A stretch of DNA of 64,000 nt from an uncultured Anaerolineaceae bacterium (GTDB lineage: Bacteria; Chloroflexota; Limnocylindria; Limnocylindrales; CSP1-4), in contig CAZFGT010000003.1 of assembly GCA_964518505.1 (NCBI GenBank), forward strand, positions 26,589-90,588, read 5' to 3'. Below are positions 15,428 through 38,183 of the stretch, in pieces; position 1 is the stretch's first letter; each line of letters opens with the position of its first letter. Under the pieces are notes generated by a model that did no database searches, was not told the DNA's origin, and saw only the letters and a program-made list of their open reading frames with translations. The position numbers and the translations under genes are program-made.

Positions 15428-15760
15428 ATGGCCAGCCCGGCCCGCATCCGCGCCACGATCGCCTCCGTCACCACGGCTCCCGACGAGCTGCGCGAACTGC
15501 GCGCGTTCCACAAGGCCCTCGCCGACGTCAACCGCCTGCGGCTGGTCCGCCGCCTGGCCGACGGGCCGGCGACCGTGGCCGAGCTGACCGAGCATGTCGG
15601 CCTGTCGCAGCCCCTGGTCAGCTGGCACCTCGGCCGCCTCCGCGCCGCCGGGCTCGTGGCCATGCGTCGCAGCGGCCGGGAGACGGTGTGTAGCCTCGAA
15701 CCCGCGGCGCTCCTGGCCGCCGAGCAGCGCGAGCGCGCGTGGCTGGGCCTGGCGGGATGA
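15428..15760 (+). CDS. ArsR/SmtB-family transcriptional regulator
   Basis: Winged-HTH signature LADVNRLRLVRRLADGPATVAELTEHVGLSQPLVSWHL. It is divergent from the MFS pump, and its stop overlaps the next ATG (ATGA). Confidence 0.85.
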   Translation: MASPARIRATIASVTTAPDELRELRAFHKALADVNRLRLVRRLADGPATVAELTEHVGLSQPLVSWHLGRLRAAGLVAMRRSGRETVCSLEPAALLAAEQRERAWLGLAG

Positions 15761-16392
15761 ACCTCAAGGAGGGCTCGCTGCTGTCGGTCGCCGCGCGCGA
15801 TCGCTTCCGCCACCGCGTGGAGCCGTACGCCGCCAACCTCGCCCGGGTCGGCCTGACGCCCAACGCGCTGACGCTGATCGGCTTCGGCATCTCCGTCGCG
15901 GCGGCCGCCCTGGGCGGCCTGCAGCTGTGGCTGGCCTGCGGGCTGGTGGCCACGTTCGGGGCCGCCTTCGACATGTTCGACGGCGCCGTGGCCCGCGCCA
16001 CCGGCACGGCCAGCCCGTTCGGCGCGTTCATGGACAGCACCTTCGACCGCTGGGGCGAGGGCATCGTCTACGCCGGCATCGCCACCGGGGCGGCCCTGGC
16101 GGGCCAGTCGGTGACCGTCCTGCTGGCGGCGCTGGCGATGGGCGCCGCCTTCATGGTCAGCTACAGCCGGGCCAAGGCGGAGAGCCTTGGCTGGCATGGC
16201 GAGACGGGCATCGCCCCGCGCCCCGAGCGCGTCGTGCTCCTGGGCCTGGGCCTCGTGGCGGCTGGCCTGGGGGGTGGACCGGCCGGCGGCCCGTGGCTCC
16301 AGCTGGCCCTTGCCGCCATCGCCGTCCTCGGCACCGTCACGGTCATCCAACGCATCGTCTACGTCCAGCATCAGGCAGAAGGGACCAGGTAG
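15757..16392 (+). CDS. CDP-alcohol phosphatidyltransferase (phosphatidylinositol-phosphate synthase-like, PgsA1 type)
   Basis: D-x2-DG-x2-AR…G-x3-D-x3-D motif (FDMFDGAVARATG…FMDSTFDRWGE) and multiple TM helices. Confidence 0.85.
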   Translation: MNLKEGSLLSVAARDRFRHRVEPYAANLARVGLTPNALTLIGFGISVAAAALGGLQLWLACGLVATFGAAFDMFDGAVARATGTASPFGAFMDSTFDRWGEGIVYAGIATGAALAGQSVTVLLAALAMGAAFMVSYSRAKAESLGWHGETGIAPRPERVVLLGLGLVAAGLGGGPAGGPWLQLALAAIAVLGTVTVIQRIVYVQHQAEGTR

Positions 16393-16398
16393 GAGCAC

Positions 16399-17631
16399 AT
16401 GGAGCAGCACGTGAGCAAGAACGGGCAGGAGAAGGAAGCGCCGGCGAAGGGCAGCGGCAAGCGCGGCGACGGCAAGATCCGCGTCGCCATCGTGGGCGTC
16501 GGCAACTGTGCCAGCAGCCTGGTGCAGGGCCGCTACTACTACGAGAACGCCAAGGACGACGAGTTCGTGCCGGGCCTCATGCACGTCAACCTGGGCGGGT
16601 ACCACATCCGCGACATCGAGTTCGTGGCCGCCTTCGACATCGACAAGAACAAGGTCGGCAAGGACCTGTCCGAGGCGATCTACACCAAGCCCAACAACAC
16701 CTACGTCTTCAAGCAGGTCCCCCACATCGGGGTCAAGGTCGAGCGCGGGATGACCCACGACGGCCTGGGCAAGTACCTCAGCCAGATCATCGAGAAGGCG
16801 CCCGGCCCGACGGCCGATGTGGTGGGCATCCTCAAGTCGCGCAAGGTCGACGTCGTCGTCTCCTACCTGCCGGTCGGCTCGGAGGAGGCCACCAAGTGGT
16901 ACGTCGAGCAGGCCCTGGCGGCCGGCGTCGGCTTCGTCAACGCCATCCCCGTCTTCATCGGCCGCGAGCCGTACTGGCAGCGCCGCTTCGCCGAGAAGGG
17001 CCTGCCGGTCATCGGCGACGACATCAAGAGCCAGGTCGGGGCCACCATCACGCACCGCGTCCTGACCCGCCTCTTCATGGATCGCGGCGTGCGCCTGGAC
17101 CGCACGTACCAGCTCAACTTCGGCGGCAACACCGACTTCCTGAACATGCTCGAGCGCGAGCGCCTGGAGTCCAAGAAGATCAGCAAGACCAACGCCGTCA
17201 CGTCGATGCTCGACTACGACATCGACCCCGACGACATCCATGTCGGCCCGTCCGACCACGTGCCGTGGCTGCTCGACCGTAAGTGGTGCTACATCCGCAT
17301 GGAGGGCACGACCTACGGCGACGTGCCCCTCAACGCCGAGCTCAAGCTCGAGGTCTGGGACAGCCCCAACAGCGCCGGCGTCATCACCGACGCGGTCCGC
17401 TGCCTGAAGCTGGGCCTGGATCGCGGCCTGAAGGGCACGCTCGTGGCGCCGTCCTCGTACTTCATGAAGAGCCCGCCGATCCAGATCCACGACGACATCG
17501 CCTTCGAGCGGGTCGAGGCCTTCATCCGGGGCGAGGACAACGAGACCCTGGTGGGCACCGAGGCAGCCCCGGCGCGTCGCATGCGCCGGATGGCCCCGGC
17601 GCGCGCCAAGGCGAGCGTGGCGGCACGCTGA
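16399..17631 (+). CDS. ino1: myo-inositol-1-phosphate synthase
   Basis: Conserved MIPS motifs ([39 protein letters not shown]). 410 aa. Confidence 0.9.
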
Positions 17632-17735
17632 AGCGCCGCACGCCCGGATCGGGAGCCGCACCCCCAGCGCCTCCCGCGCCGGTGGCCTCCACGACCGTAC
17701 CCGCGCCGCATCGCCCGCCCGCCCGCGGCGGACGG

Positions 17736-18734
17736 GTGCGGCGCACCCTGCTGCGCGCCAACGAGAAGGCGACCGTGACCGCCTACCGGGCCACCTCGGC
17801 CGTGATGGGCCACGTCCCCGTGGGCGTGGCCTGGCCGGTGGCGCGCGCCGGGTTCCTCGCCGGCTACGCGGCGTGGCCGGCCAAGCGACGCATCATCCAG
17901 GCCAATGCGGGCCACATCCTGGGCGTGCCGCCGGACGATCCCGCCGCGCGGCGGCTCGCCCGGCGCGTCTACCAGACGTACGCGCGGTACGTCGTGGAGC
18001 TGATGCGGCTGCCCTCGCGGCCGCTCGACGAGCCTGGGCGCCTGTTCGAGACCGGGGGCCCGGGTGGCTACGACTCGTTCCGGGCGCTCTACGAACGGAC
18101 CGCCGCGGAGGGCCGCTCGCTCATCGCCGTGAGCTGCCACATCGGCAGCATCGAGACCCTCGTGGCCGCCTTCGCGACACGCGGCATGCCCGTCTACGGC
18201 CTGGCCGACGACAGCGCCTATCCCGAGCTCTACGAACTCCTCCAGGCGCAGCGGCGCCGCTGGGGTGTGGAGGTCGTCCCCTGGCGCAACCTCCGGTCGC
18301 TCTTCCGCATCCTCCGCCAGCCGGTCGTGCTGGGCCTGCTCGTCGACTGGGGCTATCGCGCCGAGGACGTGCCGGTCCGCCTCTTCGGGGCCTGGACCAC
18401 GCTGCCGGCCGGCCCGGCGGTGCTCGCCGCGCGGACGGGGGCACGCCTCGTACCGGTCGCCTGCCGCCGGCTGCCCGATGGGCACTACGAGGCGCAGCAC
18501 CTGGATCCGATCGAGGTCCGCGACGGCTCCCCGGCCGGCGTGGCCCGGGCGACCCAGGCCATCGCCGACGCCGTGGAGACCATGGTCCGCGTCGCGCCCG
18601 CCCAGTGGTACACGTTCAAGCGCATGTGGCCGGCGACGGACGCCGAGGCGCAGACGCTGGCCGCGCGAGCCGCCGGCATGCTGGCCGACAAGGCGCCGGT
18701 CGAAGCGGCGGCGGCTGAGCCGGCCCCGGCATGA
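17736..18734 (+). CDS. Lysophospholipid acyltransferase (LpxL/HtrB family, PatA-like), copy 1
   Basis: LPLAT-family pattern (N-terminal amphipathic segment, HIGSIE, LVDWGYRAED…RLFG, PAGPAVLAARTGARLVPV). GTG start at 17736 is assumed; upstream ORF sequence overlaps ino1 in another frame. Confidence 0.7.
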   Translation: MRRTLLRANEKATVTAYRATSAVMGHVPVGVAWPVARAGFLAGYAAWPAKRRIIQANAGHILGVPPDDPAARRLARRVYQTYARYVVELMRLPSRPLDEPGRLFETGGPGGYDSFRALYERTAAEGRSLIAVSCHIGSIETLVAAFATRGMPVYGLADDSAYPELYELLQAQRRRWGVEVVPWRNLRSLFRILRQPVVLGLLVDWGYRAEDVPVRLFGAWTTLPAGPAVLAARTGARLVPVACRRLPDGHYEAQHLDPIEVRDGSPAGVARATQAIADAVETMVRVAPAQWYTFKRMWPATDAEAQTLAARAAGMLADKAPVEAAAAEPAPA

Positions 18735-19711
18735 GCGAACCGCCGACCGGCACGCCGCGCCAGCGCCTCACGGCACGCCTCGTGGCGGCCGGCTCCGCCC
18801 TCGCCTGCCGGCTGCCGGGCGGCCCCCTTGAGCGCCTGGCCGACGCCCTTGGCGGGGCCCGCTACCTCCTCGCCCGGGCGCCGCAGCGGGACCTCGTGCG
18901 GGCCAACATGCGGCGGGTCTGTGAGGGCCTGGTGGCGGCCGGGCTGGCCACCCCGCGCGTCACGGCGGCCACGAGCGACCCGCGCGTCCTTGACGACCTG
19001 GTCCGCGGCGTCTACCGCCATCACGCCCGATACCTGGTGGAGTTGATGCGCGGGCCGACCATGACGGCCGCCTGGCTGGCGTCCCACCTCGTGATCGAGA
19101 CGCCGGAGACGATCGACGCCGCCTACGCGCGCGTCGCCGCCGGCGGTGCCCTGCTCGCCCTCGGCCTGCATTTCGGGCCCGTCGAGATGCCCGCCATCTA
19201 CAGCGCGGTGCGCAGCGGACGACGCGTCGCCGGCCCCATGGAGATCATCGACAATCCGCCGCTCCAGGCGTGGTTCACGGCCCAGCGGGAACGCCTGGGG
19301 GTGCAGGCCGTCATGCCGCCCGAGACGGCCGGGCCGGAGCTCCGGCGCACCCTCCGCGAGGGCGGCCTGGTGGGCATCGTGGCCGACCGCGACATCGCCG
19401 GCAGCGGCCGGCCGACCCGGCTGTTCGGCGCGCCGGCGCCCCTGTCGGCCGGCCCGGCCCTGCTGGCCCTGGAGAGCGGCGTGCCCACGTACGCCGTGGC
19501 CATCCGGCGGGTGGGGTGGAGTCGCTACGCGGGTCGCATGGTGCCGCTCGACCTGCCCAGCGGCGGCTCGCTGCGCCAGCGCGTCGAGGCCTTCATGGAA
19601 GGCGAGGCGCGCGCCTTCGAACGCCTCGTGGCCGCCGCGCCGGAGCAATGGTGGGCCCTCCTGTTCCCCATCTGGCCCGACCTCGTGCCCTCCACTGCGG
19701 CCGGCGCATGA
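18731..19711 (+). CDS. Lysophospholipid acyltransferase (LpxL/HtrB family), copy 2
   Basis: A paralogous LPLAT (HFGPVE, IVADRDIAGSGRPTRLFG, PAGPALLALESGVPTYAV). Start overlaps the copy 1 stop (ATGA). Confidence 0.7.
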   Translation: MSEPPTGTPRQRLTARLVAAGSALACRLPGGPLERLADALGGARYLLARAPQRDLVRANMRRVCEGLVAAGLATPRVTAATSDPRVLDDLVRGVYRHHARYLVELMRGPTMTAAWLASHLVIETPETIDAAYARVAAGGALLALGLHFGPVEMPAIYSAVRSGRRVAGPMEIIDNPPLQAWFTAQRERLGVQAVMPPETAGPELRRTLREGGLVGIVADRDIAGSGRPTRLFGAPAPLSAGPALLALESGVPTYAVAIRRVGWSRYAGRMVPLDLPSGGSLRQRVEAFMEGEARAFERLVAAAPEQWWALLFPIWPDLVPSTAAGA

Positions 19712-20544
19712 GCGCCGTCGATCCCGCCGACGTGACGCGCCCCGGGCGGGCCGACCTGCACATCCACACCGCGGCCTCGGACGGCACGGCGCCCGTGACC
19801 GACGTCCTCGAGCGCGTGGCGGCGCGGGGCGACCTGGACGTCATCGCCATCGCCGATCACGACCGCCTGGATGCCGCACTCGCGGCGCAGGCCATGGCCC
19901 GCAGCCGGGCGTACCCCTTCCAGGTGGTCGTGGGCGAGGAGGTCAGTACTCGCGGGGGGCACCTGCTCGGGCTATTCCTGACCAGCCGCGTCCGGCCCTG
20001 GCGCTCGATGCGGGCCACGATCGCTGAGGTCCATGCCCAGGGGGGCCTGGCGGTGCCTGCCCATCCGTTCATCCCCTACCCGCTGTGCGTCAGCCGCCGC
20101 ACGCTGCTGCGACTGCTGGCCGACCCCGACCCGAACGTGCATCCGGACGCCCTCGAGGTCTTCAACCCGACCACCATCGGCCGCCGCTGGCACCCCCAGG
20201 TGGTGGCCTTCGCCGCCCAGCACGGACTGCCGGGCATCGGCGACAGCGACGCCCACGAGCTGGACCAGATCGGCCAGGGCTGGACCGGCTTCCCGGGCCG
20301 CACCGCGGATGACCTGCGCCAAGCCATCCTGGCCGGCACGACGACCTGGCACGGCGACTTCTACCCGCGGTTCGCCCAGGTGGGCATGGTCGGCCGCCAG
20401 TACCGCAAGAAGGCCCTGGACCTCTCGGCCGACCTGGGCGGCCGCCTGCTGCGGCGAGGCACTGGCCGCGACCTGGGCTACCCGGGCGGACGCGAGCGGC
20501 CTGCTCGCTACGGAGCGGACACCGAGGAGGCCGGCCGGCCGTGA
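19708..20544 (+). CDS. PHP-domain metal-dependent phosphoesterase
   Basis: DLHIHTAASDG, IAIADHD and His-rich PHP signatures. ATGA overlap with the upstream gene; GTGA overlap with the downstream GT4. Confidence 0.75.
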   Translation: MSAVDPADVTRPGRADLHIHTAASDGTAPVTDVLERVAARGDLDVIAIADHDRLDAALAAQAMARSRAYPFQVVVGEEVSTRGGHLLGLFLTSRVRPWRSMRATIAEVHAQGGLAVPAHPFIPYPLCVSRRTLLRLLADPDPNVHPDALEVFNPTTIGRRWHPQVVAFAAQHGLPGIGDSDAHELDQIGQGWTGFPGRTADDLRQAILAGTTTWHGDFYPRFAQVGMVGRQYRKKALDLSADLGGRLLRRGTGRDLGYPGGRERPARYGADTEEAGRP

Positions 20545-21725
20545 AGATCGGCCTCGTCACGCCCTACGTCTACCCCCTGCCGGGGGGCGTCAACGAGCAC
20601 GTCCGGCACCTCTACGAGAACCTCCTGACGCGCGGCCATGACGTGCGCATCATCTCCAGCACGCACGGCCTGCAGAAGGCCAGCGAGGGCGACGTGATCC
20701 GCCTGGGCCGCGGCTTCAGCGTGCCCACCAACGGCTCCGTCGGCACGCTGACCCTCTCGCCGCGCTACCTGGCCCAGGCACGCGACCTGATCGCCGCGGA
20801 GCGCTTCGATCTGCTGCACTTCCACGAACCGCTGGTGCCGTTCCTGTCCCCCATCCTGCTGCGCGAATCCGATTGCGTGAACGTGGCGACCTTCCACGCC
20901 TATGCCGGCTGGAGCCCGGCCTACCAGGTCATCGGGCGGGCGGTGCGGGGGTCGGTGGCGCGGCTGCACGGCCGGATCGCGGTCAGCGCGGCGGCGCGCC
21001 ACTTCATCGATCACTACTTCCCGGGCGACTACAAGGTCATCCCCAACGGGGTGGACCTGTGGCGCTACGAATCGGCGCGGCCCATCGCCAAGTGGCGCGA
21101 CGGGACGCCCAACATCCTGTTCGTCGGCCGTTTCGAGGCCCGCAAGGGCCTGCCCGTGCTGCTCAAGGCGTACCGCACGCTGCGCCGCTCAGGACGGCCC
21201 TGCCGACTCCTCGTCGTGGGCTCCGGGCCGCTGGAGCGGGAGGTCCGGCGATACGTCCAGACGCGGCGCCTCCAGGGCGTCGAACTCCTGGGTCGCGTCA
21301 GCGATGAGGAGAAGGCCCGCTACTTCGCCACGGCGGACGTCTTCGTCGCCCCGGCCACCGGTCAGGAGTCGTTCGGCATCGTGCTGCTGGAGGCGATGGC
21401 CGCCGGGACGCCGATCGTGGCCAGTGACATCCATGGCTACAAGGGCGTCGTGCGGCGGGACGTGGAGGCGCTCCTCGTCGAGCCACGCGACCCGCACGAG
21501 CTGGCGGTGGCGCTGGCGACGCTCCTGGACGACCCCGCCGGCCGGGAGCGCCTGGCGGATGCCGGCCGACGCCGCGCCGAACAGTTCGGCTGGCCGCGCA
21601 TCACGGCCAAGGTGGACGACTACTACGGCTTCGTCATCCGGCGCCTGGCCGCCCAGGGGCGGCTGCCCTCAGGCTTCCGCGCGGCGATCCCCGAACCGAC
21701 CGACCGGGCCGAACGACCAGCCTAG
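20541..21725 (+). CDS. GT4 glycosyltransferase, PimA-like (phosphatidylinositol alpha-mannosyltransferase candidate)
   Basis: GT-B fold and GT4 motifs (EPLVP, FVGRFEARKG, E-x7-E: FGIVLLEAMAAGTPIVA). It sits beside pgsA-like and acyltransferase genes, as in the mycobacterial pgsA1-patA-pimA cluster. Confidence 0.75.
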   Translation: MKIGLVTPYVYPLPGGVNEHVRHLYENLLTRGHDVRIISSTHGLQKASEGDVIRLGRGFSVPTNGSVGTLTLSPRYLAQARDLIAAERFDLLHFHEPLVPFLSPILLRESDCVNVATFHAYAGWSPAYQVIGRAVRGSVARLHGRIAVSAAARHFIDHYFPGDYKVIPNGVDLWRYESARPIAKWRDGTPNILFVGRFEARKGLPVLLKAYRTLRRSGRPCRLLVVGSGPLEREVRRYVQTRRLQGVELLGRVSDEEKARYFATADVFVAPATGQESFGIVLLEAMAAGTPIVASDIHGYKGVVRRDVEALLVEPRDPHELAVALATLLDDPAGRERLADAGRRRAEQFGWPRITAKVDDYYGFVIRRLAAQGRLPSGFRAAIPEPTDRAERPA

Positions 21726-23221
21726 GGCCAGGGCAGGCCGGCGGCGAGATGGAGGGCGATGTCGGCGGCGTCGGACACGCCACTCGGGCCACCCAGGACG
21801 ACCATGGAGGGTGGTGCCAGCAGGTGCACCTCGTCGAGGACCTCCTGGGGCACGATGTCGCCACTCGGCACCAGCAGCAGCGGTCCGCCCAGCGGCGCGC
21901 CGGCCAGGGCGTCGGGGAAGTTCTCGCCGTTCGCCACGTAGAGGGTGTCGCCGGGGCTGTAGGTGGCCTGCGCGATGGCGACCGCCGTGCCGTACCGATC
22001 GGTGCCGCCCAGCCGCGTCACGCTCGTCGGCGCGCGGCTGGCGGTGTACTGCGCGAGGGCCGTCTGGATCGAGGCGGAGATCGAGGCCGTGCCGCCCAGG
22101 ACGTAGATGTGCGTGGGCACGAGGCGCTTGAGTTCGGTGGCCGTACTGGCGGGGATGCCGCCGCTGACGAGGAGCACGGGCGCCCCGACGTGGGCCGCGG
22201 CGGCCGCGCCGGCCAGCGCGTCGGGGAAGTTGAGGCCGCTGGCGATGTAGACGGCGGCCGGATGCGCCGCGAACGTGGCCCTGGAGACCGCTGCCGCGGT
22301 GGCGTAGCGATCGCTCCCGGCGAGGCGGGTCACGGAACCGCTGGTGTAGCCCTGCAGCAGGCTCATGACCGGCCCGTCAACAGCACTCGTGCTGCCCAGC
22401 AGGACGATCCGGCCCGGTTGGAGCCGGGCCAGCTCCTGGGCGGTGCTCATGGGCAGCAGGCCGTTCTGGACCAGCAGCACCGGTCCGCCGTTCTTGCCGG
22501 CGGCCGAGGCCCCCGAGAGGGCGTCGGGGAAGGCCTGGCCGCTGCCGACGTAGACCACGCTGACGCCGGGCGCGAAGTTGGAGGCGGAGGTCTCCGCCGA
22601 GGTCGCGTAGCGGTCGATCCCGGAGATGCGGTCGGGGTCCACCGGCGGCGGCGGGGGCGGAGGCGGGGGCGGGCCCTTGATGAAGACGCCCGTCCAGTAG
22701 GTCCGACCGCTCGTCGCGTCATACGCGACGCCGATGCCGGCCGCCGTGTACGCCGCCGTGGTGATGATGGCGTAGTGGGGCGGTGAGGCATGCCAGTCGG
22801 TGGCGGCCTCGTCGGCCGACGGGCCCCAGCTGCCGTAGCCCGCGTTCCACTCGATGATCTCGCCCATGGCCGACCACTGGATGCCCGAGTCCTCGATCAT
22901 GGAAAGGGCTGTCCGGCCGTCCGGCTGGGTGTGGGAGAAGTAGTGCAGCGTGGCCATGTTCATGGAGCGCTGCTCGGCGATCGCCTGGAGCCGGGGATCC
23001 ATGATCACCGGGGCCAGGCCGACGGCGCTGCGCTGCCCATTCAGCAGGTCCAGCTCGTGAGCCTCTGCCGCGATCGGCGTCATCGATCCGCTGCTGGCGG
23101 AGGCATGCCGGGCGCCGCCCGCCGGCGCGACCACGCAGGCCAGCGCGAATACGAAGGCGACGGCGGTGCTGAGGGTGGGGCGTCGAGCGATGGTCAAGAT
23201 CCGATCGTGTCCGGGGCACAC
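21722..23221 (-). CDS. Secreted CAP/SCP (PR-1-like) domain protein with a poly-Pro linker and 3x CWB2 (cell-wall-binding repeat 2) modules
   Basis: Signal peptide, then a CAP-domain block (HYFSHTQPDG…EIIEWN…HYAIITT), then PPPPPPPPPPP. Three repeats follow with the R-x-G-x-DRY-x-TA…FPDAL-GA……PVLLV pattern typical of CWB2. Confidence 0.65.
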   Translation of the reverse strand: MCPGHDRILTIARRPTLSTAVAFVFALACVVAPAGGARHASASSGSMTPIAAEAHELDLLNGQRSAVGLAPVIMDPRLQAIAEQRSMNMATLHYFSHTQPDGRTALSMIEDSGIQWSAMGEIIEWNAGYGSWGPSADEAATDWHASPPHYAIITTAAYTAAGIGVAYDATSGRTYWTGVFIKGPPPPPPPPPPVDPDRISGIDRYATSAETSASNFAPGVSVVYVGSGQAFPDALSGASAAGKNGGPVLLVQNGLLPMSTAQELARLQPGRIVLLGSTSAVDGPVMSLLQGYTSGSVTRLAGSDRYATAAAVSRATFAAHPAAVYIASGLNFPDALAGAAAAAHVGAPVLLVSGGIPASTATELKRLVPTHIYVLGGTASISASIQTALAQYTASRAPTSVTRLGGTDRYGTAVAIAQATYSPGDTLYVANGENFPDALAGAPLGGPLLLVPSGDIVPQEVLDEVHLLAPPSMVVLGGPSGVSDAADIALHLAAGLPWP

Positions 23222-23365
23222 GCGTGATGGACGGCGACATGGAGCGCCGTGCTACCCCGCCAGTCTGGGCGCCCTCACCGCCACGACCATAGCGCACGGG
23301 TCCCGCCTGCGGACTCGTCGATGGTACGGGCGGCGTGCTCAGACCCGGTCAGGCGGTGCCCGCTG

Positions 23366-26300
23366 TCAACGCGTTACCGGCTCGTCGGGGTCCGGCCCGG
23401 GGCCACGGAGGAGTTCCAGGCGCTGGGCGCGGCGCGTCCACGCGGCGTACATCACGGCCAGGGCCAGGGCCGCGGTGACCAGCACGAGCGACCCGGACTG
23501 GAGGCCCAGCACCTGCAGCGTCTGCGGCGGGTCGGTGTTGACGGCGAACTGGAAGTCGTACACGTAGGTCGGCAGAGGCAGGACCTGGAAGATGTTCTTG
23601 AGGCCGGTCGGGATGGGCAGGCCGGCGATGTCGGCGTAGAAGATGACGAACCACAGGGCGGCGGCACCCAGGATGCCGATCACGAAGCGATGCGGGTCGC
23701 GCATCGTGAGCACGAACCAGGCGGCGACCGCCAGCGGCACGGTGCCGATGATGGCGAACGCGTAGGGCCCCAGCGCGCCGAGCGGGGCGGAGATCAGGGA
23801 CTGGTCCCCGAACCGCGACTGGGCCAGGGCCAGGGCGGCCAGCAGGGCCGCCGCGGTGAGCACGAGCCACGGCGCGCCTGAGTGGAGCAGGCCGCCCCCG
23901 CCGGGGCGTTGGCGGCCGGCCGTGAAAGCCCGCTCGGCGAGCACCAGGCGCAGCTGCCAGAGCAGGATGGCGCCGCCGACGATGAGGACCACGGCGGAGG
24001 CAGCGACCCGCTCGGTGAGCACGAACGGCATGCTCACGAAGCCGCAGACCTGCGAGTTGGGCGCCACCCGGGAGGTCCCGGCCAGCGCACACAGCGGCAC
24101 GCGGGCCAGCCACAGGAGCGGCGCCGCCACCAGGGCACCCGCGGCGGCCAGGCGGGCCAGCAGCCAGGTGCGCGGCGAGGGACCGTGCCATAGCTCGGCC
24201 AGCCAGTAGGCCACGGCGGCGAAGAGGAACGGCAGCGCCGTGTAGTAGTGGTACTGGAAGCTCGCCCGGTCGATGCGTGACCAGGAGAGCCACTGGCAGA
24301 CGAAGCCGATGACCAGGATCGTCAGGGCCAGGCTCCGCCGCGCCCAGGCCTGCCAGGCGGCCCAGGCCATGACCGGCACGCCGAGCCAGAAGATCACCAG
24401 GTTGCCGGCGTCGTACGTGATGCCGGTCGTGTCGTTGGCGTAACCCTGCTGGAAGAACCACACCGGCTTGAAGTCGAAGGGCCAGGCCCACCACGGCGAC
24501 GACGCAGGATGGGAGGCGCGCAGGTCGTTGTGGTAGTTGTACATCTGGATCTGGAGGTCCAGCAGCGTCTGGCCCGTGTGGCCGGCCGGGTAACCGGTGA
24601 ACCACTGGTTGCCCAGGGCGATCCACGGCGCGTAGCTGATGACGTAGACGACGAGCGGGACGAGCGTGAAGCAGGCCAGGGCGAGCAGCCATGGCGCGCC
24701 CAGGAACGCGCCGGGGATGAGCCATCCCTGGTCGGGGGCCTCGGCGGGCGGGGGGTCGGCGGGTCCGGCACGCACGCGGGCCAGGGGGCCCAGGCCGCTC
24801 CGGCCGGCCAGCGAGAAGGCGACCAGGACCGCGGCCGCGAGGACGAGGAAGGCGGCCCCCACCAGGACGAGGTTGCCGGGCGTGGCCGAGGCACCGGTCG
24901 CCGGCGCCCGCCCGCCGAGCACGATGCCCGCCAGGAGCGCCAGCCCGCCGGCCGCGGCCGGGGCACCGACCGCGAAGCGCACCTCGTCGAGCGTCCAGCG
25001 GATGGGGCGCACGACGATGGCCGCCGCCAGGACCCCGGTGAGGATGACCATCAGGACGAGGAAGCTCGCATCGCCGATCGGCGCGCCGGCGGAGGTGGCG
25101 CCGATGGCCAGCCAGCCCAGCACGCCCGTCAGGCCCACCATGGCCGCGAGGGCCAGGAGGCGGCCCAGCGCTGAGCGCAGCAGCACGAGCAGGACGATGC
25201 CGCCGATGGCGTAGGCGCCGACCCACTTGGAGGCGAGGGCCAGGCCCAGCAGGACGCCGATGGCCGGGATGGCCAGGGCCACCACCCAGCGGCGACGCCA
25301 CAGCCCCATGTAGATCGGCACGAAGAGCATGTAGGCGGCCACGATGAAGAGGGCCACGTACGTGTCGTTCATGGCGATCCGCGACTGGGCGAAGAACATG
25401 CCGTCGACCAGCACCAGGCCCGCGGTGAGGAGGGCCACGGAGCGCCGGCGGAAGAGCATGCGCACGAGGAGGTAGAGGCAGCCCAGCAGGAGGGCGCCGG
25501 CGATGACGCCCATGATCCGCCAGGCGTAGGCGTGGTTGCCGATGTCCACCACGGCCAGCTGGCCGGCTGAGTCCACGGCCAGGAGCTGCTGGCGATCCTG
25601 GGCCGGGCGCTGGGGCTGCGTGTCCAGGGTCATGGCGATGGTCGAGAACGGCAGGCGGGCGTCGGCGAAGACGGCGTTGCCGTGCGGCTCCACGACGTAC
25701 ACCGTGTCGCTGCTGCCGTCGGCCGTGCGGCCCAGGACGTGGATGATGTTGGACGACTCGTCCCACGCCACCGCCCGGACCGGGCCGGGCATCTTGAGGG
25801 TGCCGCCCAGCGTGGTCCCGCCCGAGGCCGGCACCGCCACCCAGCTGAGCGACGACTCGCCGGCGGCGTAGATCGTGGGCTGGTCGAGCCCGTTCATCAG
25901 CACCAGCCCGGTGGCTGCCTCGGGCAGCGTCAGCTGGCTCGTCGAGACCAGCGTCGCCGCGTCCCGCAGGTCCAGCGTGTCGCCCTCGGCGACCGCCACC
26001 GCGCCGGCCCCGGAGTCCGTGGGCACGGCGACCAGGGCGGCCGCCGACGGATCGGCCACCGAGGCGGACTGGCTGCCGTCGGCCGTGGCCAGGCTGACCA
26101 GCTGGTGGGCCGTCGTGATGGCCTCGACGTGGGCGCCGTCGGACGACACGATGACGGTCGCGACCGGGCCGCCGAACGTGCCGAGGCGCGTCGCCACGGG
26201 CGCCGCCGCGGAGGTGGCGAGGCGCATGGCGTCGAGGTCGGCCGTCTGGATGGTCCATAGCCCGCCCGCGTCGTCGGCCACGTACAGCACGTGGTTGCCC

Positions 26301-28462
26301 TCATCGACGGCCAGATGGACGGCCACCCGCCCCTGGCCAAGGGCCACGGTCGCCACGACCTGCCGCGTGGCCAGGTCGTAGGCCACGACGCCGCTCGGGG
26401 TGGCCGTGTAGAGGCGGTCGCCATCACGCTGGTCCGGTTGGTCGGGCGGGCTCCAGCGCGTCTCGGTCACGGCGTCGGTGACCGGCCCGCCCAGATCGGC
26501 CGTGCCCGTCACGTTGTCGTCGCCGAAGGCCACGAGGCCGACGGCGATGAGGTACTTGGCCAGGTGGGGGTGGGTGAACTCGTAGATGTCGTGGGGCTCG
26601 CCGTAGCGCCAGTCCTGCAGGAACTCGGTCGCCGTGCGGGCGTGGTAGACCTCGTCGAAGATCATGCCGAAGGGCTGGCCAAGGTCCCACGTCCGCAGGA
26701 CCATGGCGGCCACGATCAGGATGAGCACCACGAGCCCGTCCAGCCGGTCGGGCAGCCCGAACGGCTCGCGCCGCAGCTCGCCGCTGCGGTCACGCCGCAG
26801 CGAGCGGGCCATCAGTCCGCGCAGCAGGCCCGATCGCCGGGGAGCCTGGAGACCCGGTGACGCCAGCGGCGCCGGGGCCGGAGCCCGTGGTGCCGGCGGC
26901 GGCCGGTCGTAGGGGTCGACCTCCGGCGGCCGCGCCCCGAGGCCCGCCAGGCGGCGCAGCGGCCCGGCGACGAGGTCGCTGATGGGCCGCAGCGACCAGG
27001 CCACGACGAGGAACCCGCCCGTCTGGAGGATGACGCTCAGGAGCACCCCGCCAAAGCTCCGCATGTCGGCCCCGAAGGGCAGGCCGCTGACGTTGGCCGT
27101 GCCGTAGTTGCCGACCGTGAGGATGCCGTGCAGGTTGATGAACGAGCCGATGGCGAGGACCAGCGTCAGGACCCGGAAGCGCCGCGAGTTGACCGCCAGC
27201 AGCGGCAGGAAGACGAAGACGGGGAAGAGGTAGCGCTCGTGCACGCGCGTGGGCAGGATGAAGAAGGCGAGCGACAGGAAGACGGCGGTCAGCAGGATCG
27301 AGCGGCGTGAATCGCGCCACGCGAGCTGGATGGCCCCCACGGCGAAGCCCAGGCCCAGCAGCAGGGCCCCGATCGTGAAGCCGTTGAGCCCAGCCAGCAG
27401 GGGCACCTGGTCGGACGACCAGCCCCCGCCGGCGGCCAGCGAGGCCTGCCCGCCGGAGCCGATGAGCGCCCATGGGTCATAGGCATTGACGCTCAGGTAG
27501 GGATAGCCGGCGGCCGTGTCGCCCATGCGCGAGATCAGCGTGGGCACGTCCAGGCCGAACGGGGTGATGAGGACGAAGAGGACCACCGCCCCCACCGCCG
27601 CACAGCTGACGAGGCGCCAGATGCCCTGTTCCTCCACGACCCACGAACGGAGCGCCCGGGGTACCGCTGTCGCCCGCGGTCCCGATCCGATGAGGAAGAG
27701 GTGGCGGCGCAGGAGCGTCACGCCGATGAGCGGCGCGAGGACGATGCCGAACTGCGGCTTGACCAGCGCCGCCACGACGGCGAAGCCGACGGCGGCCTCG
27801 GAGAAGCCGTCGATCAGGAAGGCGATGGCGACGAGCATGACCAGCGCGCCGACGGCGTCGATCTGGCCCCACAGCGCCGAGTCGTACCAGGTGACCGGGT
27901 TGAAGAGGTAGAGCGCGGCGGCCCCCAGCGCCGCGCCGCGGGCGTCCGATCGCGTCCCCAGCCAGCGGCGGACGAGGCGGTACAGGAGGTAGGCGATGCC
28001 CAGGTCGGCGGCGATCGCCGGCAGCTTGATGAGCCCGCCCACGATCGTGTCGGGCAGCGGCAGGACGATCCCACCGAAGGTGATCGTGCCGCCGCCCAGC
28101 AGGTCGGCCACGCCGCTGCCGATCGAGCCCAGGATCCACAGCACGTAGAGGTAGCCGGGCGGGTAGTCGGCGAAGCCGGCGTTGGCGTAGAAGCCGCCGG
28201 GGCCGCCGTGGGCGAGCGTCAGGGCCCACGAGGTGAAGCTGCCGATGTCGCTCTGGAAGCCAGAGCCCGGGAAGAGGACGTATGCGATGATGAGTCGCAA
28301 CGCCAGCCCGACCAGGAGCAGGATGGCGATGGCGGGGATGGCCGAGGGCGACCCGTCCGAGCGTCTCGGCGCCGTGCGCCCCGGTGCGGCCTCACCCGGC
28401 CGAGGCGCTGTCGAGTCCAACCGGCCTCCTGCACGAGCGACGAGTGGCCCGCAGTATAGCAA
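23366..28462 (-). CDS. Giant (1698 aa) polytopic glycosyltransferase: N-terminal GT-C-like module + β-propeller-like domain + PMT/GT39 mannosyltransferase module
   Basis: The PMT-family DE motif (MIFDEVYHART) and the C-terminal PMT_4TMC-like signature (HPASSPWWAWPFDFKPVWF) are present. A ~300-aa soluble repeat-rich insert replaces the MIR domain. The N-terminal ~550 aa form another ~11-TM GT-C-like domain, possibly DUF2029/GT87-like. The annotated start is TTG and is uncertain. Confidence 0.7.
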   Translation of the reverse strand: MLYCGPLVARAGGRLDSTAPRPGEAAPGRTAPRRSDGSPSAIPAIAILLLVGLALRLIIAYVLFPGSGFQSDIGSFTSWALTLAHGGPGGFYANAGFADYPPGYLYVLWILGSIGSGVADLLGGGTITFGGIVLPLPDTIVGGLIKLPAIAADLGIAYLLYRLVRRWLGTRSDARGAALGAAALYLFNPVTWYDSALWGQIDAVGALVMLVAIAFLIDGFSEAAVGFAVVAALVKPQFGIVLAPLIGVTLLRRHLFLIGSGPRATAVPRALRSWVVEEQGIWRLVSCAAVGAVVLFVLITPFGLDVPTLISRMGDTAAGYPYLSVNAYDPWALIGSGGQASLAAGGGWSSDQVPLLAGLNGFTIGALLLGLGFAVGAIQLAWRDSRRSILLTAVFLSLAFFILPTRVHERYLFPVFVFLPLLAVNSRRFRVLTLVLAIGSFINLHGILTVGNYGTANVSGLPFGADMRSFGGVLLSVILQTGGFLVVAWSLRPISDLVAGPLRRLAGLGARPPEVDPYDRPPPAPRAPAPAPLASPGLQAPRRSGLLRGLMARSLRRDRSGELRREPFGLPDRLDGLVVLILIVAAMVLRTWDLGQPFGMIFDEVYHARTATEFLQDWRYGEPHDIYEFTHPHLAKYLIAVGLVAFGDDNVTGTADLGGPVTDAVTETRWSPPDQPDQRDGDRLYTATPSGVVAYDLATRQVVATVALGQGRVAVHLAVDEGNHVLYVADDAGGLWTIQTADLDAMRLATSAAAPVATRLGTFGGPVATVIVSSDGAHVEAITTAHQLVSLATADGSQSASVADPSAAALVAVPTDSGAGAVAVAEGDTLDLRDAATLVSTSQLTLPEAATGLVLMNGLDQPTIYAAGESSLSWVAVPASGGTTLGGTLKMPGPVRAVAWDESSNIIHVLGRTADGSSDTVYVVEPHGNAVFADARLPFSTIAMTLDTQPQRPAQDRQQLLAVDSAGQLAVVDIGNHAYAWRIMGVIAGALLLGCLYLLVRMLFRRRSVALLTAGLVLVDGMFFAQSRIAMNDTYVALFIVAAYMLFVPIYMGLWRRRWVVALAIPAIGVLLGLALASKWVGAYAIGGIVLLVLLRSALGRLLALAAMVGLTGVLGWLAIGATSAGAPIGDASFLVLMVILTGVLAAAIVVRPIRWTLDEVRFAVGAPAAAGGLALLAGIVLGGRAPATGASATPGNLVLVGAAFLVLAAAVLVAFSLAGRSGLGPLARVRAGPADPPPAEAPDQGWLIPGAFLGAPWLLALACFTLVPLVVYVISYAPWIALGNQWFTGYPAGHTGQTLLDLQIQMYNYHNDLRASHPASSPWWAWPFDFKPVWFFQQGYANDTTGITYDAGNLVIFWLGVPVMAWAAWQAWARRSLALTILVIGFVCQWLSWSRIDRASFQYHYYTALPFLFAAVAYWLAELWHGPSPRTWLLARLAAAGALVAAPLLWLARVPLCALAGTSRVAPNSQVCGFVSMPFVLTERVAASAVVLIVGGAILLWQLRLVLAERAFTAGRQRPGGGGLLHSGAPWLVLTAAALLAALALAQSRFGDQSLISAPLGALGPYAFAIIGTVPLAVAAWFVLTMRDPHRFVIGILGAAALWFVIFYADIAGLPIPTGLKNIFQVLPLPTYVYDFQFAVNTDPPQTLQVLGLQSGSLVLVTAALALAVMYAAWTRRAQRLELLRGPGPDPDEPVTR

Positions 28463-29847
28463 CGGCCCGCCCCGTTCCCCCGCCTCGCCCCAGGTCGGTC
28501 GCCGACCGTCTCCGCGCGCGGCTGGACGGCCTTGACCCGACCTGGATCGGCGTCGCCGTGTTCGTCGCCGCGCTCGTCATCTACATCGCCTCGAATCCGG
28601 CGCGCCAGAACGTCTACGACCACTTCGTGTGGCAGGCCGACGCCTACCTCCACGGCCGCTTCGCCATCACCTGGCCGGTCGTCACGGACGGGTTCCGCAA
28701 CGACTACTTCCAGGACGTCTACCCGCTCCCCTCGGCGCCGGGCTACGCGCTCCTGCCGTTCCCGCCGCTGCCGGCCGTGCTGCTCATCCCGTTCGTGGCC
28801 CTGGGCGGCCTGGGCACCGACGCGGCGCTCCTCGTGGCCTGCCTTGGCGCGGTCAACGTGGCCCTCGCCTGGCGCCTTGCCTCGCACGTCACGGACGACC
28901 GCCTGGCGGCCCTCGTGGCGACCGCCTTCTACGGCTTCGGGACGGTCGCCTGGTACGCGGCGATGCTGGGCAGCACGTGGTTCGCGGCCCACGTGGTGGC
29001 CAGCTTCTTCGTCTTCCTGGCCGTCACCCTCGCCGTCGACGGCGAACAGCGCGACCGGGCACGGGCCGCCGTGCGGCGCCTGCCCTTCGACGGGCGGCAG
29101 TTCGTGGCCGGCCTCGTCTTCGGCGTGGCGGCGCTGGCGCGCCTGACGACCATCCTGGGCCTGCCGTTCTTCGTCGTCGTCGGCAGCGGGGGGAGCATCT
29201 GGCGACGGGGCCTCTCCGCCGCCCTCGGCGCAGCCATCCCCGTCGCCGTCCTCCTGGCCTACAACCTGGCCTCGTCGGGCCAGCTCTTCGAGCCGGGCTA
29301 CGACTACCTGTACCAGACCGAGACGGTACCCATCCCCGGCGGCCTCCTGGCCCAGGTCTTCCCGGCCCTCCAGGCCATCGGCTACCACCCCGGCACGTGG
29401 AGCGCGGAGGACCTGCATTACCTGCCCCAGAACCTGCTGATCATGCTGGCCTGGCTGCCCACGGTCCAGCCGCAGTGCGGGGTCGAGGGGCTCTTCTCCA
29501 CCACCTGCGCGCTGATCCGGCCCGACCCGCTGGGCATGAGCCTGCTGCTCACCAGCCCGGCCTACCTGCTGGCCATCCCGGCGCTCCTGGCCGACTGGCG
29601 CGACCGCCTCGTCATCGGCGCCACGGTGGCAGTAGCCGTGATCGCCGGGGCCGACCTGGTCCATTTCAGCCAGGGCTGGGTCCAGTTCGGCTACCGCTTC
29701 AGCAACGACTTCGCGCCGTTCGCCCTGATCCTGGTCACGCTGGGTATCGCCCGGCTGGGGCTGCGCCGCGCCGTCGTGGGCCTGGTGGCCGCCTCGGTCC
29801 TCATCAACGCCTGGGGCGTCTTCTGGGGCGTGGCCCTGGGCTGGTGA
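28444..29847 (+). CDS. GT-C fold glycosyltransferase (PMT_2/ArnT-like, GT39/GT83 family)
   Basis: Polytopic protein of about 11 TM with a PMT_2-like profile (AWRLASHVTDDRLAALVATAFYGFGTVAWY…). Start could be ATG 28384 or GTG 28444; it is divergent from the giant GT-C gene and overlaps its N-terminus. Confidence 0.65.
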   Translation: MARSIATARPVPPPRPRSVADRLRARLDGLDPTWIGVAVFVAALVIYIASNPARQNVYDHFVWQADAYLHGRFAITWPVVTDGFRNDYFQDVYPLPSAPGYALLPFPPLPAVLLIPFVALGGLGTDAALLVACLGAVNVALAWRLASHVTDDRLAALVATAFYGFGTVAWYAAMLGSTWFAAHVVASFFVFLAVTLAVDGEQRDRARAAVRRLPFDGRQFVAGLVFGVAALARLTTILGLPFFVVVGSGGSIWRRGLSAALGAAIPVAVLLAYNLASSGQLFEPGYDYLYQTETVPIPGGLLAQVFPALQAIGYHPGTWSAEDLHYLPQNLLIMLAWLPTVQPQCGVEGLFSTTCALIRPDPLGMSLLLTSPAYLLAIPALLADWRDRLVIGATVAVAVIAGADLVHFSQGWVQFGYRFSNDFAPFALILVTLGIARLGLRRAVVGLVAASVLINAWGVFWGVALGW

Positions 29848-29868: not shown

Positions 29869-30675
29869 ATGTCGAACCCTGACGGGGTGGCGGCCGCCCC
29901 GCCAGAGGCGAGCGCGGCCGTCGTGCCCGCCCTCTCCTACTTCTTCCCCGCCCACGACGAGGCCGAGAACATCGAGGCGCTCGTGGCCGAGGCCCTGGCT
30001 GCCCTGCCCGCCCTGGCCCAGCGCTTCGAGATCATCACCGTCGACGACGGCAGCCGCGACGGCACGGGGGCCCTGGCCGACCGCCTGGCCGCCGAGCACC
30101 CCGACGTCGTGCGCGCCGTGCACCACGAGGTCAACCAGGGTTACGGGGCGGCCCTGCGCAGCGGCTTCCGGGCGGCGCGCTACCCGCTGGTGGGCTTCAC
30201 CGACGGCGACCGCCAGTTCCGCGTGGCCGACCTGCGCTTGCTGCTCGACCGTCTCGAGGCGCCCGACGCCCCCGACGTGGTCGTGGGCTACCGCCTGCGG
30301 CGGGCGGACGCCACGGTGCGCCTCCTGTATGCCCGCGTCTACCGCTGGTGCCTGCGCCTCTTCTTCGGCCTGAACGTGCGCGACGTGGACTGCGCCTGCA
30401 AACTCTTCCGGCGCGAGGCCCTCACCGGCGTGCGGCTGGAGTCCGGCGGGGCGTTCCTCTCCGCCGAGCTGCTCATCAAGCTGCGCGCCCGCGGCGCCCG
30501 CCTGGCCCAGGTGGGCGTGCCGCATCACCCGCGCGTGGCAGGCCAGGCCTCGGGCGCCAACCCGCGGGTCGTCCTGCGCGCGGTGCGCGACTTCTGGCGC
30601 CTCCGTATCCGCCTGTGGGTGGCCCGCGACCGCGCCCTGGCGCGCGGGCTGCCGGTCCTCGGCAGCGAGGCCTAG
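29869..30675 (+). CDS. GT2 polyprenyl-phosphate sugar synthase (Ppm1/DPM1/GtrB-like polyprenol monophosphomannose synthase)
   Basis: GT2 DPM1-type motifs (ITVDDGSRDGT, VNQGYGAAL, TDGDRQF, DCACKLFRR). Located 22 nt downstream of the GT-C gene. Confidence 0.8.
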   Translation: MSNPDGVAAAPPEASAAVVPALSYFFPAHDEAENIEALVAEALAALPALAQRFEIITVDDGSRDGTGALADRLAAEHPDVVRAVHHEVNQGYGAALRSGFRAARYPLVGFTDGDRQFRVADLRLLLDRLEAPDAPDVVVGYRLRRADATVRLLYARVYRWCLRLFFGLNVRDVDCACKLFRREALTGVRLESGGAFLSAELLIKLRARGARLAQVGVPHHPRVAGQASGANPRVVLRAVRDFWRLRIRLWVARDRALARGLPVLGSEA

Positions 30676-33462: not shown

Positions 33463-33837
33463 CTACACGCGCCCGTCCGGCGCTCCGCTGGCGGCTCCCG
33501 GTGGCCGGCCGGGTGGCCGTGGGGGCCGGACGACGACCCGCAGCTCCCGCATGTGGCGGCCGCCGGGCGCCTGGGCGAAGGCCGCCAGCAGCTCGTCCGC
33601 CCGCAGGGCCAGTTCCTGGGCCACGATCGGCGACGGCGCCGCGGCCACGATGGTGCCGTCCTCACGGAGGTCAAGGAGTGTGCTGGCGCCGGCCGCGGCG
33701 GGCACCCGTTCGGCCACCAGCCGGCTCCAGGCCGCCATCGCCCGGCCGCGCATGAGCGGCTCCTCCAGGCCCAGGGCCTGGGCGGCGGGTGGCAGGAGGT
33801 CGCCCAGGCGCCGCATCGGGCGACGACGATTCGTCAT
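33463..33837 (-). CDS. DUF721 (DciA-like) protein in the recF-gyrB position
   Basis: Small basic protein (…AMAAWSRLVAERVPAAAGASTLLDLREDGTIVAAAPSPIVAQELALRADELL) immediately downstream of recF, with an ATGA overlap. This is the conserved origin-region synteny. Confidence 0.65.
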   Translation of the reverse strand: MTNRRRPMRRLGDLLPPAAQALGLEEPLMRGRAMAAWSRLVAERVPAAAGASTLLDLREDGTIVAAAPSPIVAQELALRADELLAAFAQAPGGRHMRELRVVVRPPRPPGRPPGAASGAPDGRV

Positions 33838-34961: not shown

Positions 34962-35004
34962 CGCTGCCCTCCGGCGCGTGCGGGCACGGCCGGACCGCTG
35001 GCCG

Positions 35005-36120: not shown

Positions 36121-36502
36121 GGTCGGGGGTCTCCCTCGAGCCGGGAGGCCGCCATCTTGCGGCTTCCACGGGTCGGTCGTGGTGGGTGGTCCTTCTTCCT
36201 GAATCTTCTCATCTACTCATCACCGTCATATGCCTGTGGACACGGTGGAAGTCCGTGTGTGAGGCCACATCACGGGTCGGTGGATGGACCAGGGGGAGGG
36301 GGTGGAAAGCCGGGCTTCCGGATGGGACGGACGGTGGGAAGTGGCGCCGCTGGGCCGGGCGTGGTCTCCGGTGAAGGGGTCCCCTGGCGGACGGCTTGTC
36401 CACAAGTGACCCGTGTTATCCACAGATTCAGGCGGCTTCTCCACAGGAACAGGTCCGGGAAGGGGTCGCGGCGACCTCTGGCGACGACTGGCGGGCAGGC
36501 CC
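36121..36502. promoter_or_regulatory. Chromosomal origin of replication (oriC): DnaA-box cluster and AT-rich unwinding element in the dnaA-dnaN intergenic region
   Basis: TTGTCCACA (36387-36395), TTATCCACA (36417-36425, perfect consensus), TTCTCCACA (36438-36446), and an inverted GTGTCCACA (36236-36244). AT-richer stretch at 36191-36235. Actinobacteria-type placement between dnaA and dnaN. Confidence 0.75.
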
Positions 36503-37852: not shown

Positions 37853-38183
37853 CGATAGCACGACCCCGAGACTGGATGATGACCATGGACTGGGCTGCGG
37901 GACTCGCTGCCGGCCGACCCGACTGGGTTCGCGCGGGCGGCTCGAACAGGCGGCGACGGGCTGTCGGGCTGGGTCCCGGGCGTGACCGGCGGGCCGTCTC
38001 CTGGCGCACCTCCGGCGTCCCGGCGCTGGGGGTCGAAAGAGAGTAGCACCGCCCCGAGCGGCCCTGCAACGATGAAGTTCGGATACTCCCTGGGAGTACT
38101 GACGATCGGCGCCCCGTGGGGCCGGTGACGGGGGATGATGCCACTCCGCGGGGGCGCCTGCAGCGCCGTCGCGCAGCCCCGCG

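Follow-up and report, generated by a model that had tools for sequence, protein, structure and literature searches.

A gene from an uncultured Limnocylindria bacterium encodes an ALG6-like GT-C module, a β-propeller and a PMT-like module in one reading frame

We analyzed a 64,000-nucleotide stretch of DNA (hereafter the window; positions 26,589 to 90,588 of the forward strand of contig CAZFGT010000003.1, GenBank assembly GCA_964518505.1) from an uncultured Anaerolineaceae bacterium that GTDB places in the class Limnocylindria of the Chloroflexota, and within it a single gene that joins two membrane glycosyltransferase modules of the GT-C type and a β-propeller. This fusion had been proposed in a preliminary description of the gene, and the predicted folds, the Pfam matches and the continuous reading frame all bear it out. 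The product is best read as a glycosyltransferase of the cytoplasmic membrane with two active sites, which would use polyprenol-phosphate-sugar donors. Arguing by analogy, we give an even chance to the reading that it is a single-chain version of the mycobacterial protein O-mannosyltransferase (Pmt) with its GT-C partner and propeller, one site initiating protein O-mannosylation and the second probably elongating. The parts of the gene are given below; residues are numbered throughout from an upstream TTG codon at 28462 (1698 residues), although the start that we favor is residue 15.

23366..28420, minus strand: fusion gene as corrected, 1684 codons plus stop (basis: the frame shown by G+C at third codon positions, GC3; homologue N-termini; orthologous loci)
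28425..28430, minus strand: Shine-Dalgarno-like AGGAGG, 6 nt upstream of TTG 28420, read from the codon listing
26990..28345, minus strand: N-terminal module (N-module), residues 40-491, GT-C fold, ALG6/ALG8-like, about 12-13 membrane helices
26747..26989, minus strand: linker, residues 492-572, Pro/Arg-rich, poorly conserved, predicted local distance difference test score (pLDDT) about 50
26513..26746, minus strand: first transmembrane helix (TM1) of the protein O-mannosyltransferase (PMT) module and first part of extracytoplasmic loop 1, residues 573-650, with the Asp-Glu (DE) motif and the HPHLAK helix (from the fungal PMT alignment and invariant columns)
26651-26656, minus strand: DE motif D603-E604, predicted catalytic Asp-Glu of loop 1
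25544..26512, minus strand: seven-bladed β-propeller, residues 651-973, inserted in loop 1
24080..25543, minus strand: PMT (GT39) membrane core from TM2 onward, residues 974-1461, with the EL2 motif R1028-x4-D1033 and with R1399-x2-F1402
24188-24568, minus strand: PMT_4TMC region, residues 1299-1425, within the PMT core, with the motif SSPWWAWPF
23369..24079, minus strand: C-terminal extension, residues 1462-1698, five long helices

AlphaFold2 was run on two pieces of the protein with alignments of 100 homologues, and both were modeled well (residues 15-560: pLDDT 89.8, predicted template modelling score [pTM] 0.88; residues 561-1698: pLDDT 89.8, pTM 0.91). The hydrophobic helices counted in the two models came to about 32, and this replaces the earlier figure of about 25 membrane helices. 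In an alignment of 121 sequences that are 45-94% identical to the window protein, 308 positions were at least 95% conserved, distributed over both modules.

The PMT module matched both Pfam models of its family above their cut-offs (PMT, PF02366: 52.6 bits vs 22.7; PMT_4TMC, PF16192: 40.4 bits vs 32.4), its modeled GT-C fold was superposable on solved PMTs, and D603-E604 was conserved, confirming the description of a PMT/GT39 core with an FDEV-type DE motif and a four-helix PMT domain. In the PMT of Mycobacterium tuberculosis, residues D74, D176 (in Rx4-6D) and R441-x2-Y444 are essential by mutagenesis (PMC12331936). Their counterparts here are D603, R1028-x4-D1033 and R1399-x2-F1402, all at least 95% conserved among the 121 sequences; the fungal PMT alignment supports the correspondence for D603 and for R1028-x4-D1033, and that for R1399-x2-F1402 was drawn by motif only. 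On the NCBIfam equivalog model for actinobacterial Pmt (NF058602), the protein scored 33.2 bits, far below the cut-off of 800.

Alignment to the fungal PMT structures 9i5k and 9e61 placed TM1, the FDEV segment and the HPxLxK helix all N-terminal to the propeller, and matched fungal TM2 to residues ~979 onward, with about 29 fungal residues corresponding to about 339 here. The propeller is thus predicted to be an insertion in extracytoplasmic loop 1, which carries the catalytic Asp-Glu, between the HPHLAK helix and TM2. Of the domain order proposed earlier, the PMT core and PMT_4TMC do follow the propeller, but the DE motif, which had been placed after it, lies before it in this alignment. Nor does the propeller take the place of the MIR domain, as had been suggested: MIR sits between TM7 and TM8, a position that holds only a loop of about 40 residues here. 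To our knowledge, bacterial PMTs too lack MIR. Despite its different position, the propeller may be a functional analogue of MIR. In the AlphaFold2 model it consists of seven four-stranded blades superposable on YncE, in keeping with the YVTN/β-propeller-like soluble domain described before; the YVTN/YncE sequence models, however, stayed below cut-off on it (TIGR02276: 12.9 vs 27.85 bits; NF052280: 11.2 vs 400 bits).

Past PMT_4TMC the protein runs on for about 235 conserved residues with five long helices in the AlphaFold2 secondary structure, an extension that is not found in solved PMTs; the four-helix PMT domain is therefore present but does not end the protein as had been described. An invariant Cys pair (C1458/C1473) stands at the start of the extension, which also carries a conserved LPT..YDFQF.VN motif. 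It had no Pfam or NCBIfam match, and local hhalign comparison with the other profiles of the locus gave nothing significant.

The N-module proved to be GT-C-like, as had been claimed. Pfam Alg6_Alg8 (PF03155; cut-off 25) matched residues 144-441 with 24.9 bits in the full protein and with 30.0 bits when the N-module was scanned alone, and it matched 15 of 16 members of the N-module family (best E 4.2e-10). AlphaFold2 predicted an ALG6-type GT-C fold whose best structural relatives were ALG6, GPI-MT-I, ALG3 and PimE, the module being nearer to the first three than to PimE. PIG-U was a second Pfam family slightly over cut-off (25.3 vs 24.5), and GT87 (PF09594, DUF2029), for which a search had been suggested, touched a single one of the 16 members, below cut-off. 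Identity to ALG6 (PDB 6snh/6sni) was 16%. HMMER searches of PDB sequences with the N-module or its 16-sequence profile gave nothing relevant, with no match even when E values of 10 were allowed; for a profile built from the entire fusion family, PMTs were the only PDB sequences matched.

Over about 120 sequences of 45-95% identity, D72, D99-Y-P-P, K235-P-Q and H408-E-R-Y of the N-module were invariant. We checked the yeast ALG6 sequence against PDB 6snh and aligned it to the N-module profile by hhalign, which paired D99-Y-P-P with ALG6 D99-Y-P-P, V-H408-E with V-H378-E and K-P-Q with K-Q in a comparison that was statistically weak overall (E 0.012, single comparison). D72 fell two residues off ALG6 D69, a residue with a reported role in that enzyme, and this pairing is tentative. 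Asp99 and His378 are essential in ALG6 (review PMC10859629). These residues bear on whether the N-module could be a non-catalytic scaffold or substrate-binding partner, like Rv0051 or like PIG-U in the GPI transamidase, leaving catalysis to the PMT module alone. The precedent is the mycobacterial Pmt partner Rv0051, reported to be without catalytic residues; the invariance of all four motifs, the alignment with ALG6 Asp99 and His378, and the occurrence of standalone N-module homologues as independent genes speak for an active module, and we consider a mere scaffold quite improbable.

The standalone homologues came from searching 1.84 billion representative proteins exhaustively by HMMER with the N-module as query, which returned 3725 matches (2017 at ≤1e-10 and 186 at ≤1e-30) in two length classes, fused (1500-2400 residues) and short (440-520 residues). 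The short-class members that we examined were complete genes in mid-contig, not adjacent to a PMT gene (examples: 465-495 residues). Since complete standalone homologues exist, the N-module family would work on its own, and by sequence it is an autonomous GT-C family that got joined to PMTs. Other fused variants differ in the length of the insert between the two modules, which is longer or shorter.

The linker is gapped and weakly conserved in the alignment, contains 16 Lys/Arg in 84 residues, and ends in a conserved RRDRS...E..GGR.DRLD segment. Because it is rich in Lys and Arg it is probably cytoplasmic by the positive-inside rule, and in the topology that follows the active-site loops of both GT-C modules would face outward. 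Since both modules retain the residues that define their active sites, it is plausible that one polypeptide carries out two glycosyl transfers; that these add two different sugars processively, as had been proposed, is a hypothesis.

We asked whether so long a gene could be an artefact, that is, two adjacent genes merged by a sequencing or assembly error, or a pseudogene. The open reading frame (ORF) is present as called (23366..28462, minus strand). In a window of 68-76% G+C, GC3 was 0.9-1.0 (about 0.95) in the frame of the ORF from ~codon 25 to the stop, and G+C over the three codon phases ranked high, middle and low in the sense-strand pattern along it. The sole GC3 dip lies at the Pro/Arg-rich linker (residues ~500-550), where Pro and Arg codons lift G+C at other codon positions. 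The GC3 frame plot gave no sign of a frameshift over the whole length of the ORF, including any that would split the gene.

Related loci gave the same result. For the fusion we counted the 64 loci, from distinct GTDB species, whose ORF ends inside the retrieved DNA; without exception they come from metagenome-assembled genomes (MAGs) of Limnocylindria. In 58 of them the N-module, loop 1, propeller, PMT core and C-terminal extension lie in one frame of 1609-1946 codons, and three others are long ORFs with one part failing the frame check. In two loci (L071; L086, 7977-14189) the gene is broken into two ORFs, the break falling either inside the propeller or ahead of it. Although these two splits favor an artefact, both cases bear MFD isolate names, and the split may well be an assembly frameshift in long-read-style MAGs; it could also mark a pseudogene. 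The uniform coding GC3 in a single frame, the frame kept in 58 of 64 independent species-level assemblies, and the conservation of both modules and of the end of the linker make an artefact extremely improbable; we rejected a frameshift or merger on the GC3 plot and the 58 one-frame loci, upholding the single continuous ORF first described. The last of the 64 (L013, 7908-9386, plus strand) is a standalone 492-residue N-module paralogue with 63% identity. Its MAG, MFD05502.bin.1.37, also holds a fused copy (L010, 96% identity), with bin contamination possible, and the organism of the window may likewise have a standalone paralogue.

In wider searches, 5.8 billion proteins yielded 1069 matches at E ≤1e-5. 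The best 120 of these were 1560 to 1946 residues long, more than 100 of them being full-length at 1640-1950 residues, and all had PMT and PMT_4TMC; the named sources among them were Candidatus Limnocylindria or Chloroflexota MAGs. Homologues are labeled 'phospholipid carrier-dependent glycosyltransferase' or 'Gpi18-like mannosyltransferase' in the databases. With each GTDB species represented by one genome, a scan identified 528 stretches encoding an N-module relative, the best 80 of them in uncultured Chloroflexota MAGs throughout; the closest relative among species-level genomes (L007) was 97% identical.

The gene had been described as starting at a TTG (28462) that overlaps a divergent gene, leaving its N-terminus uncertain. 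The gene calls of the closest homologues start at the residue that matches a second TTG, 28420 (residue 15), and AGGAGG stands 6 nt upstream of it, indicating a protein of 1684 residues; the start is most likely TTG 28420, not TTG 28462. The DNA upstream shows an antisense GC pattern, so the neighboring gene is divergent and on the plus strand. Its own start is ambiguous (GTG 28384, 28444 or 28558), and the overlap of the two genes is probably not real. A scan of 22900-28900 found no sigma-70 promoter and no intrinsic terminator.

The closest parallel in composition is the mycobacterial Pmt (Rv1002c) complex, for which a preprint (bioRxiv 10.64898/2026.07.15.738315, July 2026) reports three partners, all recovered in a Pmt pull-down: Rv0051, a GT87-like GT-C protein without catalytic residues that was modeled as a Pmt2-like partner; Rv3212, a periplasmic propeller of eight blades modeled directly over the Pmt active site as an MIR analogue; and Rv1209, a small bridging protein. 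Like this complex, the window protein brings together a GT39 PMT, a second GT-C module and an extracytoplasmic β-propeller; what the N-module shares with Rv0051, and the propeller with Rv3212, is the kind of part, as judged from the descriptions. In the window protein all parts are in one polypeptide, and the organism belongs to the Chloroflexota, not the Actinomycetota. Its propeller has seven blades and is inserted in loop 1, whereas Rv3212 is a separate protein; the mycobacterial propeller is modeled over the DE-motif active site, and ours is rooted in the DE-motif loop itself. The partner module is ALG6/GT57-like with catalytic-type residues, in contrast to the GT87-like and reportedly inactive Rv0051, and a covalent, probably cytoplasmic linker joins the modules where mycobacteria have a DivIVA-like bridging subunit.

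Other systems share fewer features. The same preprint mentions a GT39 protein from Paenibacillus that forms a translational fusion with a GT87 enzyme (UniProt V9WAU2). There too a PMT is naturally joined to a second GT-C module, but the partner is described as GT87 and ours is ALG6-like. Compared with the eukaryotic Pmt1-Pmt2 and Pmt4 enzymes (6p25, 6p2r, 9e61), the window protein has no MIR β-trefoil at TM7-TM8, its cap being the loop-1 propeller; its partner comes from a different GT-C family and is covalently joined, and it has extra C-terminal helices. Unlike ALG6/ALG8 (GT57), the N-module is bacterial and PMT-fused, and its acceptor cannot be the eukaryotic Dol-PP-GlcNAc2Man9; unlike PimE (GT87; PDB 9dm5), it is not GT87 by Pfam.

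We examined the surroundings of the fusion gene through the gene order of the window and of five contigs for which gene calls were available, and by tblastn over 86 loci. The neighbors on which the argument draws are the following.

29869..30675, plus strand: GT2 of the polyprenyl-phosphate-sugar synthase type (Pfam Glycos_transf_2), present in 73 of 86 loci
28384..29847, plus strand: divergent polytopic membrane protein (start 28384, 28444 or 28558), present in 79 of 86 loci
15739..21725, plus strand: phosphatidylinositol (PI)/phosphatidylinositol-mannoside (PIM)-like operon with genes for a phosphatidylinositol-phosphate (PIP) synthase, Ino1, two PatA-like acyltransferases, a PHP phosphoesterase and a PimA-like GT4

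The conserved order runs from dnaA, dnaN, recF and DciA through a ~750-residue protein and a BFN-domain protein to genes on the opposite strand for the GT2, often a TMEM260_N (GT-C) protein and the polytopic membrane protein, and then to the fusion gene; convergent with it lie GT4, PHP, two Lip_A_acyltrans genes, Ino1, CDP-OH_P_transf and an ArsR-type regulator. By tblastn this order was upheld almost everywhere that the retrieved DNA extends.

The GT2 reads as a protein without membrane helices. Its best PDB relatives (ArnC, an archaeal Dol-P-Man synthase and GtrB) all load a sugar on polyprenyl phosphate, and its best NCBIfam matches were PpgS, ArnC-type and Dol-P-hexose transferase models, besides PgaC; it likely makes the lipid-linked donor. 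A GT2 donor synthase gene beside GT-C genes that use its product outside the cytoplasm recalls the three-component Gtr systems of GT2, flippase and GT-C (PMC11127046). At the window locus, by comparison, we identified no GtrA-type flippase, several GT-C genes share one GT2, and the likely acceptor is protein rather than polysaccharide. The divergent membrane protein had no Pfam or PDB match and one weak NCBIfam match (LA_3751/LA_3752 putative glycosyltransferase, 21.6 bits). Local hhalign among its profile and those of the TMEM260-like neighbor, N-module, PMT core and C-terminal extension gave probabilities below 13% throughout, and the GT-C gene of the earlier description is at most a putative one. 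A TMEM260_N-family gene lies between the GT2 and divergent genes in 56 of 86 loci (L002-L005; in L003 at 6953-8482, minus strand) but neither the window nor its closest relatives have it; TMEM260_N is another GT-C family of the O-mannosyltransferase type.

The operon, with its ArsR-type regulator, spans 15428-21725 on the plus strand, its genes overlapping or tightly spaced. The GT4 aligned along its whole length with PimA of Mycobacterium smegmatis (2gej/4n9w; E 4e-53, 184 bits, against 84 bits for the next best match), PIM acyltransferase was the top NCBIfam model for both acyltransferases, and the CDP-alcohol transferase scored 144 bits on the PIP synthase model, below the cut-off of 170. 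From its sequences, the operon seems to encode a pathway from PI to acyl-PIM, here in a class of Chloroflexota. The PHP-domain metal phosphoesterase (window ~19708-20544, plus strand) is part of it at every locus that we examined; we speculate, from position only, that this is a candidate phosphatase for the step from PIP to PI.

With the mycobacterial precedent in mind, we propose the following scheme. The soluble GT2 would put a hexose, most likely mannose, on polyprenyl phosphate at the cytoplasmic face. Once the donor is flipped, the PMT module would move the first mannose to Ser/Thr of exported proteins with D603 as base, while R1028/D1033 and R1399/F1402 would hold the donor phosphate and the acceptor. 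Starting from the DE-motif loop, the propeller would cap the active site and select or present acceptor proteins, a role equivalent to that of MIR in eukaryotic PMTs or to that proposed for Rv3212. The N-module would be a built-in partner, packed against the PMT module in a manner that we presume and equivalent in role to Pmt2 in Pmt1-Pmt2 or to Rv0051. In mycobacteria, PimE (GT-C) extends protein O-mannose after the first mannose added by Pmt and also builds higher PIMs (2025 review PMC12757957). Because its set of active-site residues is complete, unlike that of Rv0051, the N-module most likely adds the next hexose, as PimE does on O-mannose chains, and it may also act, PimE-like, on PIM-type glycolipids made through the adjacent operon. 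More tentatively, and as a possibility that we hold to be clearly weaker than the single-chain O-mannosylation reading by itself, the protein could be a natural O-mannosylation holoenzyme in which an initiating GT39 module, an acceptor-gating propeller and an active elongating GT-C module serve both glycoproteins and PIM-like glycolipids.

Several observations weigh against a protein acceptor or the mycobacterial analogy. The closest structural relatives of the N-module all act on or bind lipid-linked glycans, not glycoproteins; being ALG6-like and not GT87-like, the module would match Rv0051 and PimE in role rather than by demonstrated homology. By its sequence the PMT module is a distant member of GT39 and not an Rv1002c orthologue, and its acceptor need not be protein. 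The tight synteny with the PimA operon fits a glycolipid acceptor equally well; being confined to one class, it is also weaker than synteny across phyla would be, and common descent of the region around the replication origin may account for part of it.

These points lead to an alternative in which both modules extend PI-anchored glycolipids of a PIM/lipomannan-like kind, begun by the PimA/PatA operon, on the outer face and with polyprenol-phosphate-sugar donors; the GT39-like module would have taken on an acceptor other than protein, and the propeller would bind the growing glycan or the cell wall. The conserved adjacency of the genes for PIP synthase, Ino1, two PatA-like acyltransferases and PimA is consistent with lipoglycan assembly, as are the N-module relatives ALG6, GPI-MT-I, ALG3 and PimE, which glycosylate lipid-linked glycans, two of them PI-anchored, the label 'Gpi18-like mannosyltransferase' in source databases, and the remoteness of the PMT module from the actinobacterial Pmt equivalog (33 vs 800 bits). 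On the other hand, the peptide- and donor-binding residues defined in the M. tuberculosis enzyme are all retained, PMT plus partner GT-C plus propeller is the exact composition of the mycobacterial protein-mannosylation complex, and the fusion gene lies outside the PimA operon and runs toward it from the opposite strand. We also know of no characterized GT39 enzyme that is not a protein O-mannosyltransferase, and counted this against the lipoglycan alternative, which we consider unlikely, if less so than a scaffold role for the N-module.

Part of this picture was known: public databases already contain proteins of the family under generic labels, its component families have been described, and the preprint cited above mentions another fusion of a PMT with a GT-C. 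We did not find the architecture of the window protein described in the searchable literature, nor did we find relevant papers there that connect glycosyltransferase fusions or PIMs to Limnocylindria or Chloroflexi. The architecture itself combines an ALG6-like partner with intact active-site residues, a loop-1 propeller and a further membrane domain at the C-terminus, and it is conserved throughout a class of Chloroflexota. The multi-subunit model of bacterial O-mannosylation is very recent and rests on structure prediction and one pull-down; a one-frame fusion of the same three kinds of part, in dozens of species of another phylum, offers independent support of the Rosetta-stone type for their joint function. 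A single polypeptide is also a handier target for cryo-electron microscopy and biochemistry, and a partner module with catalytic residues could reveal how initiation and elongation of O-mannose are coupled. If the holoenzyme reading is true, the assembly of PMT, partner GT-C and propeller would be ancient and reach beyond the Actinomycetota, and O-mannosylation in Limnocylindria would be wired to a PimA-type phosphatidylinositol-mannoside pathway. That pathway has so far been viewed as an actinobacterial hallmark. The PimA/PatA/Ino1/PIP-synthase operon suggests PIM-type glycolipids in an abundant uncultured class of soil and freshwater Chloroflexota, and if confirmed, such lipids in Limnocylindria would alter their known occurrence.

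Further genes flank the fusion gene. A CAP (SCP/YkwD-like) secreted protein is encoded 145 bp downstream of it on the same strand (21722-23221, minus) and has an 11-proline linker followed by three CWB2 wall-binding repeats; it occurs in 13 of 86 loci, all 13 without the TMEM260-like gene. We rejected it as a dedicated substrate of the fusion protein, as it is restricted to the subclade of the window and not part of the conserved system. Almost every related locus also encodes a conserved protein, 747 residues long in the window (31207-33450, minus strand). Its N-terminal domain weakly resembles PP2C, a single membrane helix lies near residues 317-337, and the outer part is a large domain; its tail (ASPSPSASPSPSPHITPKPTAKPKATPKR) is rich in Ser and Pro, of a type that is often O-glycosylated. 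Just past the locus, at 33834-38218 on the minus strand, lie recF and dnaN, identified by Pfam, with DciA and dnaA placed there by synteny; in all relatives the glycosylation region thus adjoins the presumed replication origin.

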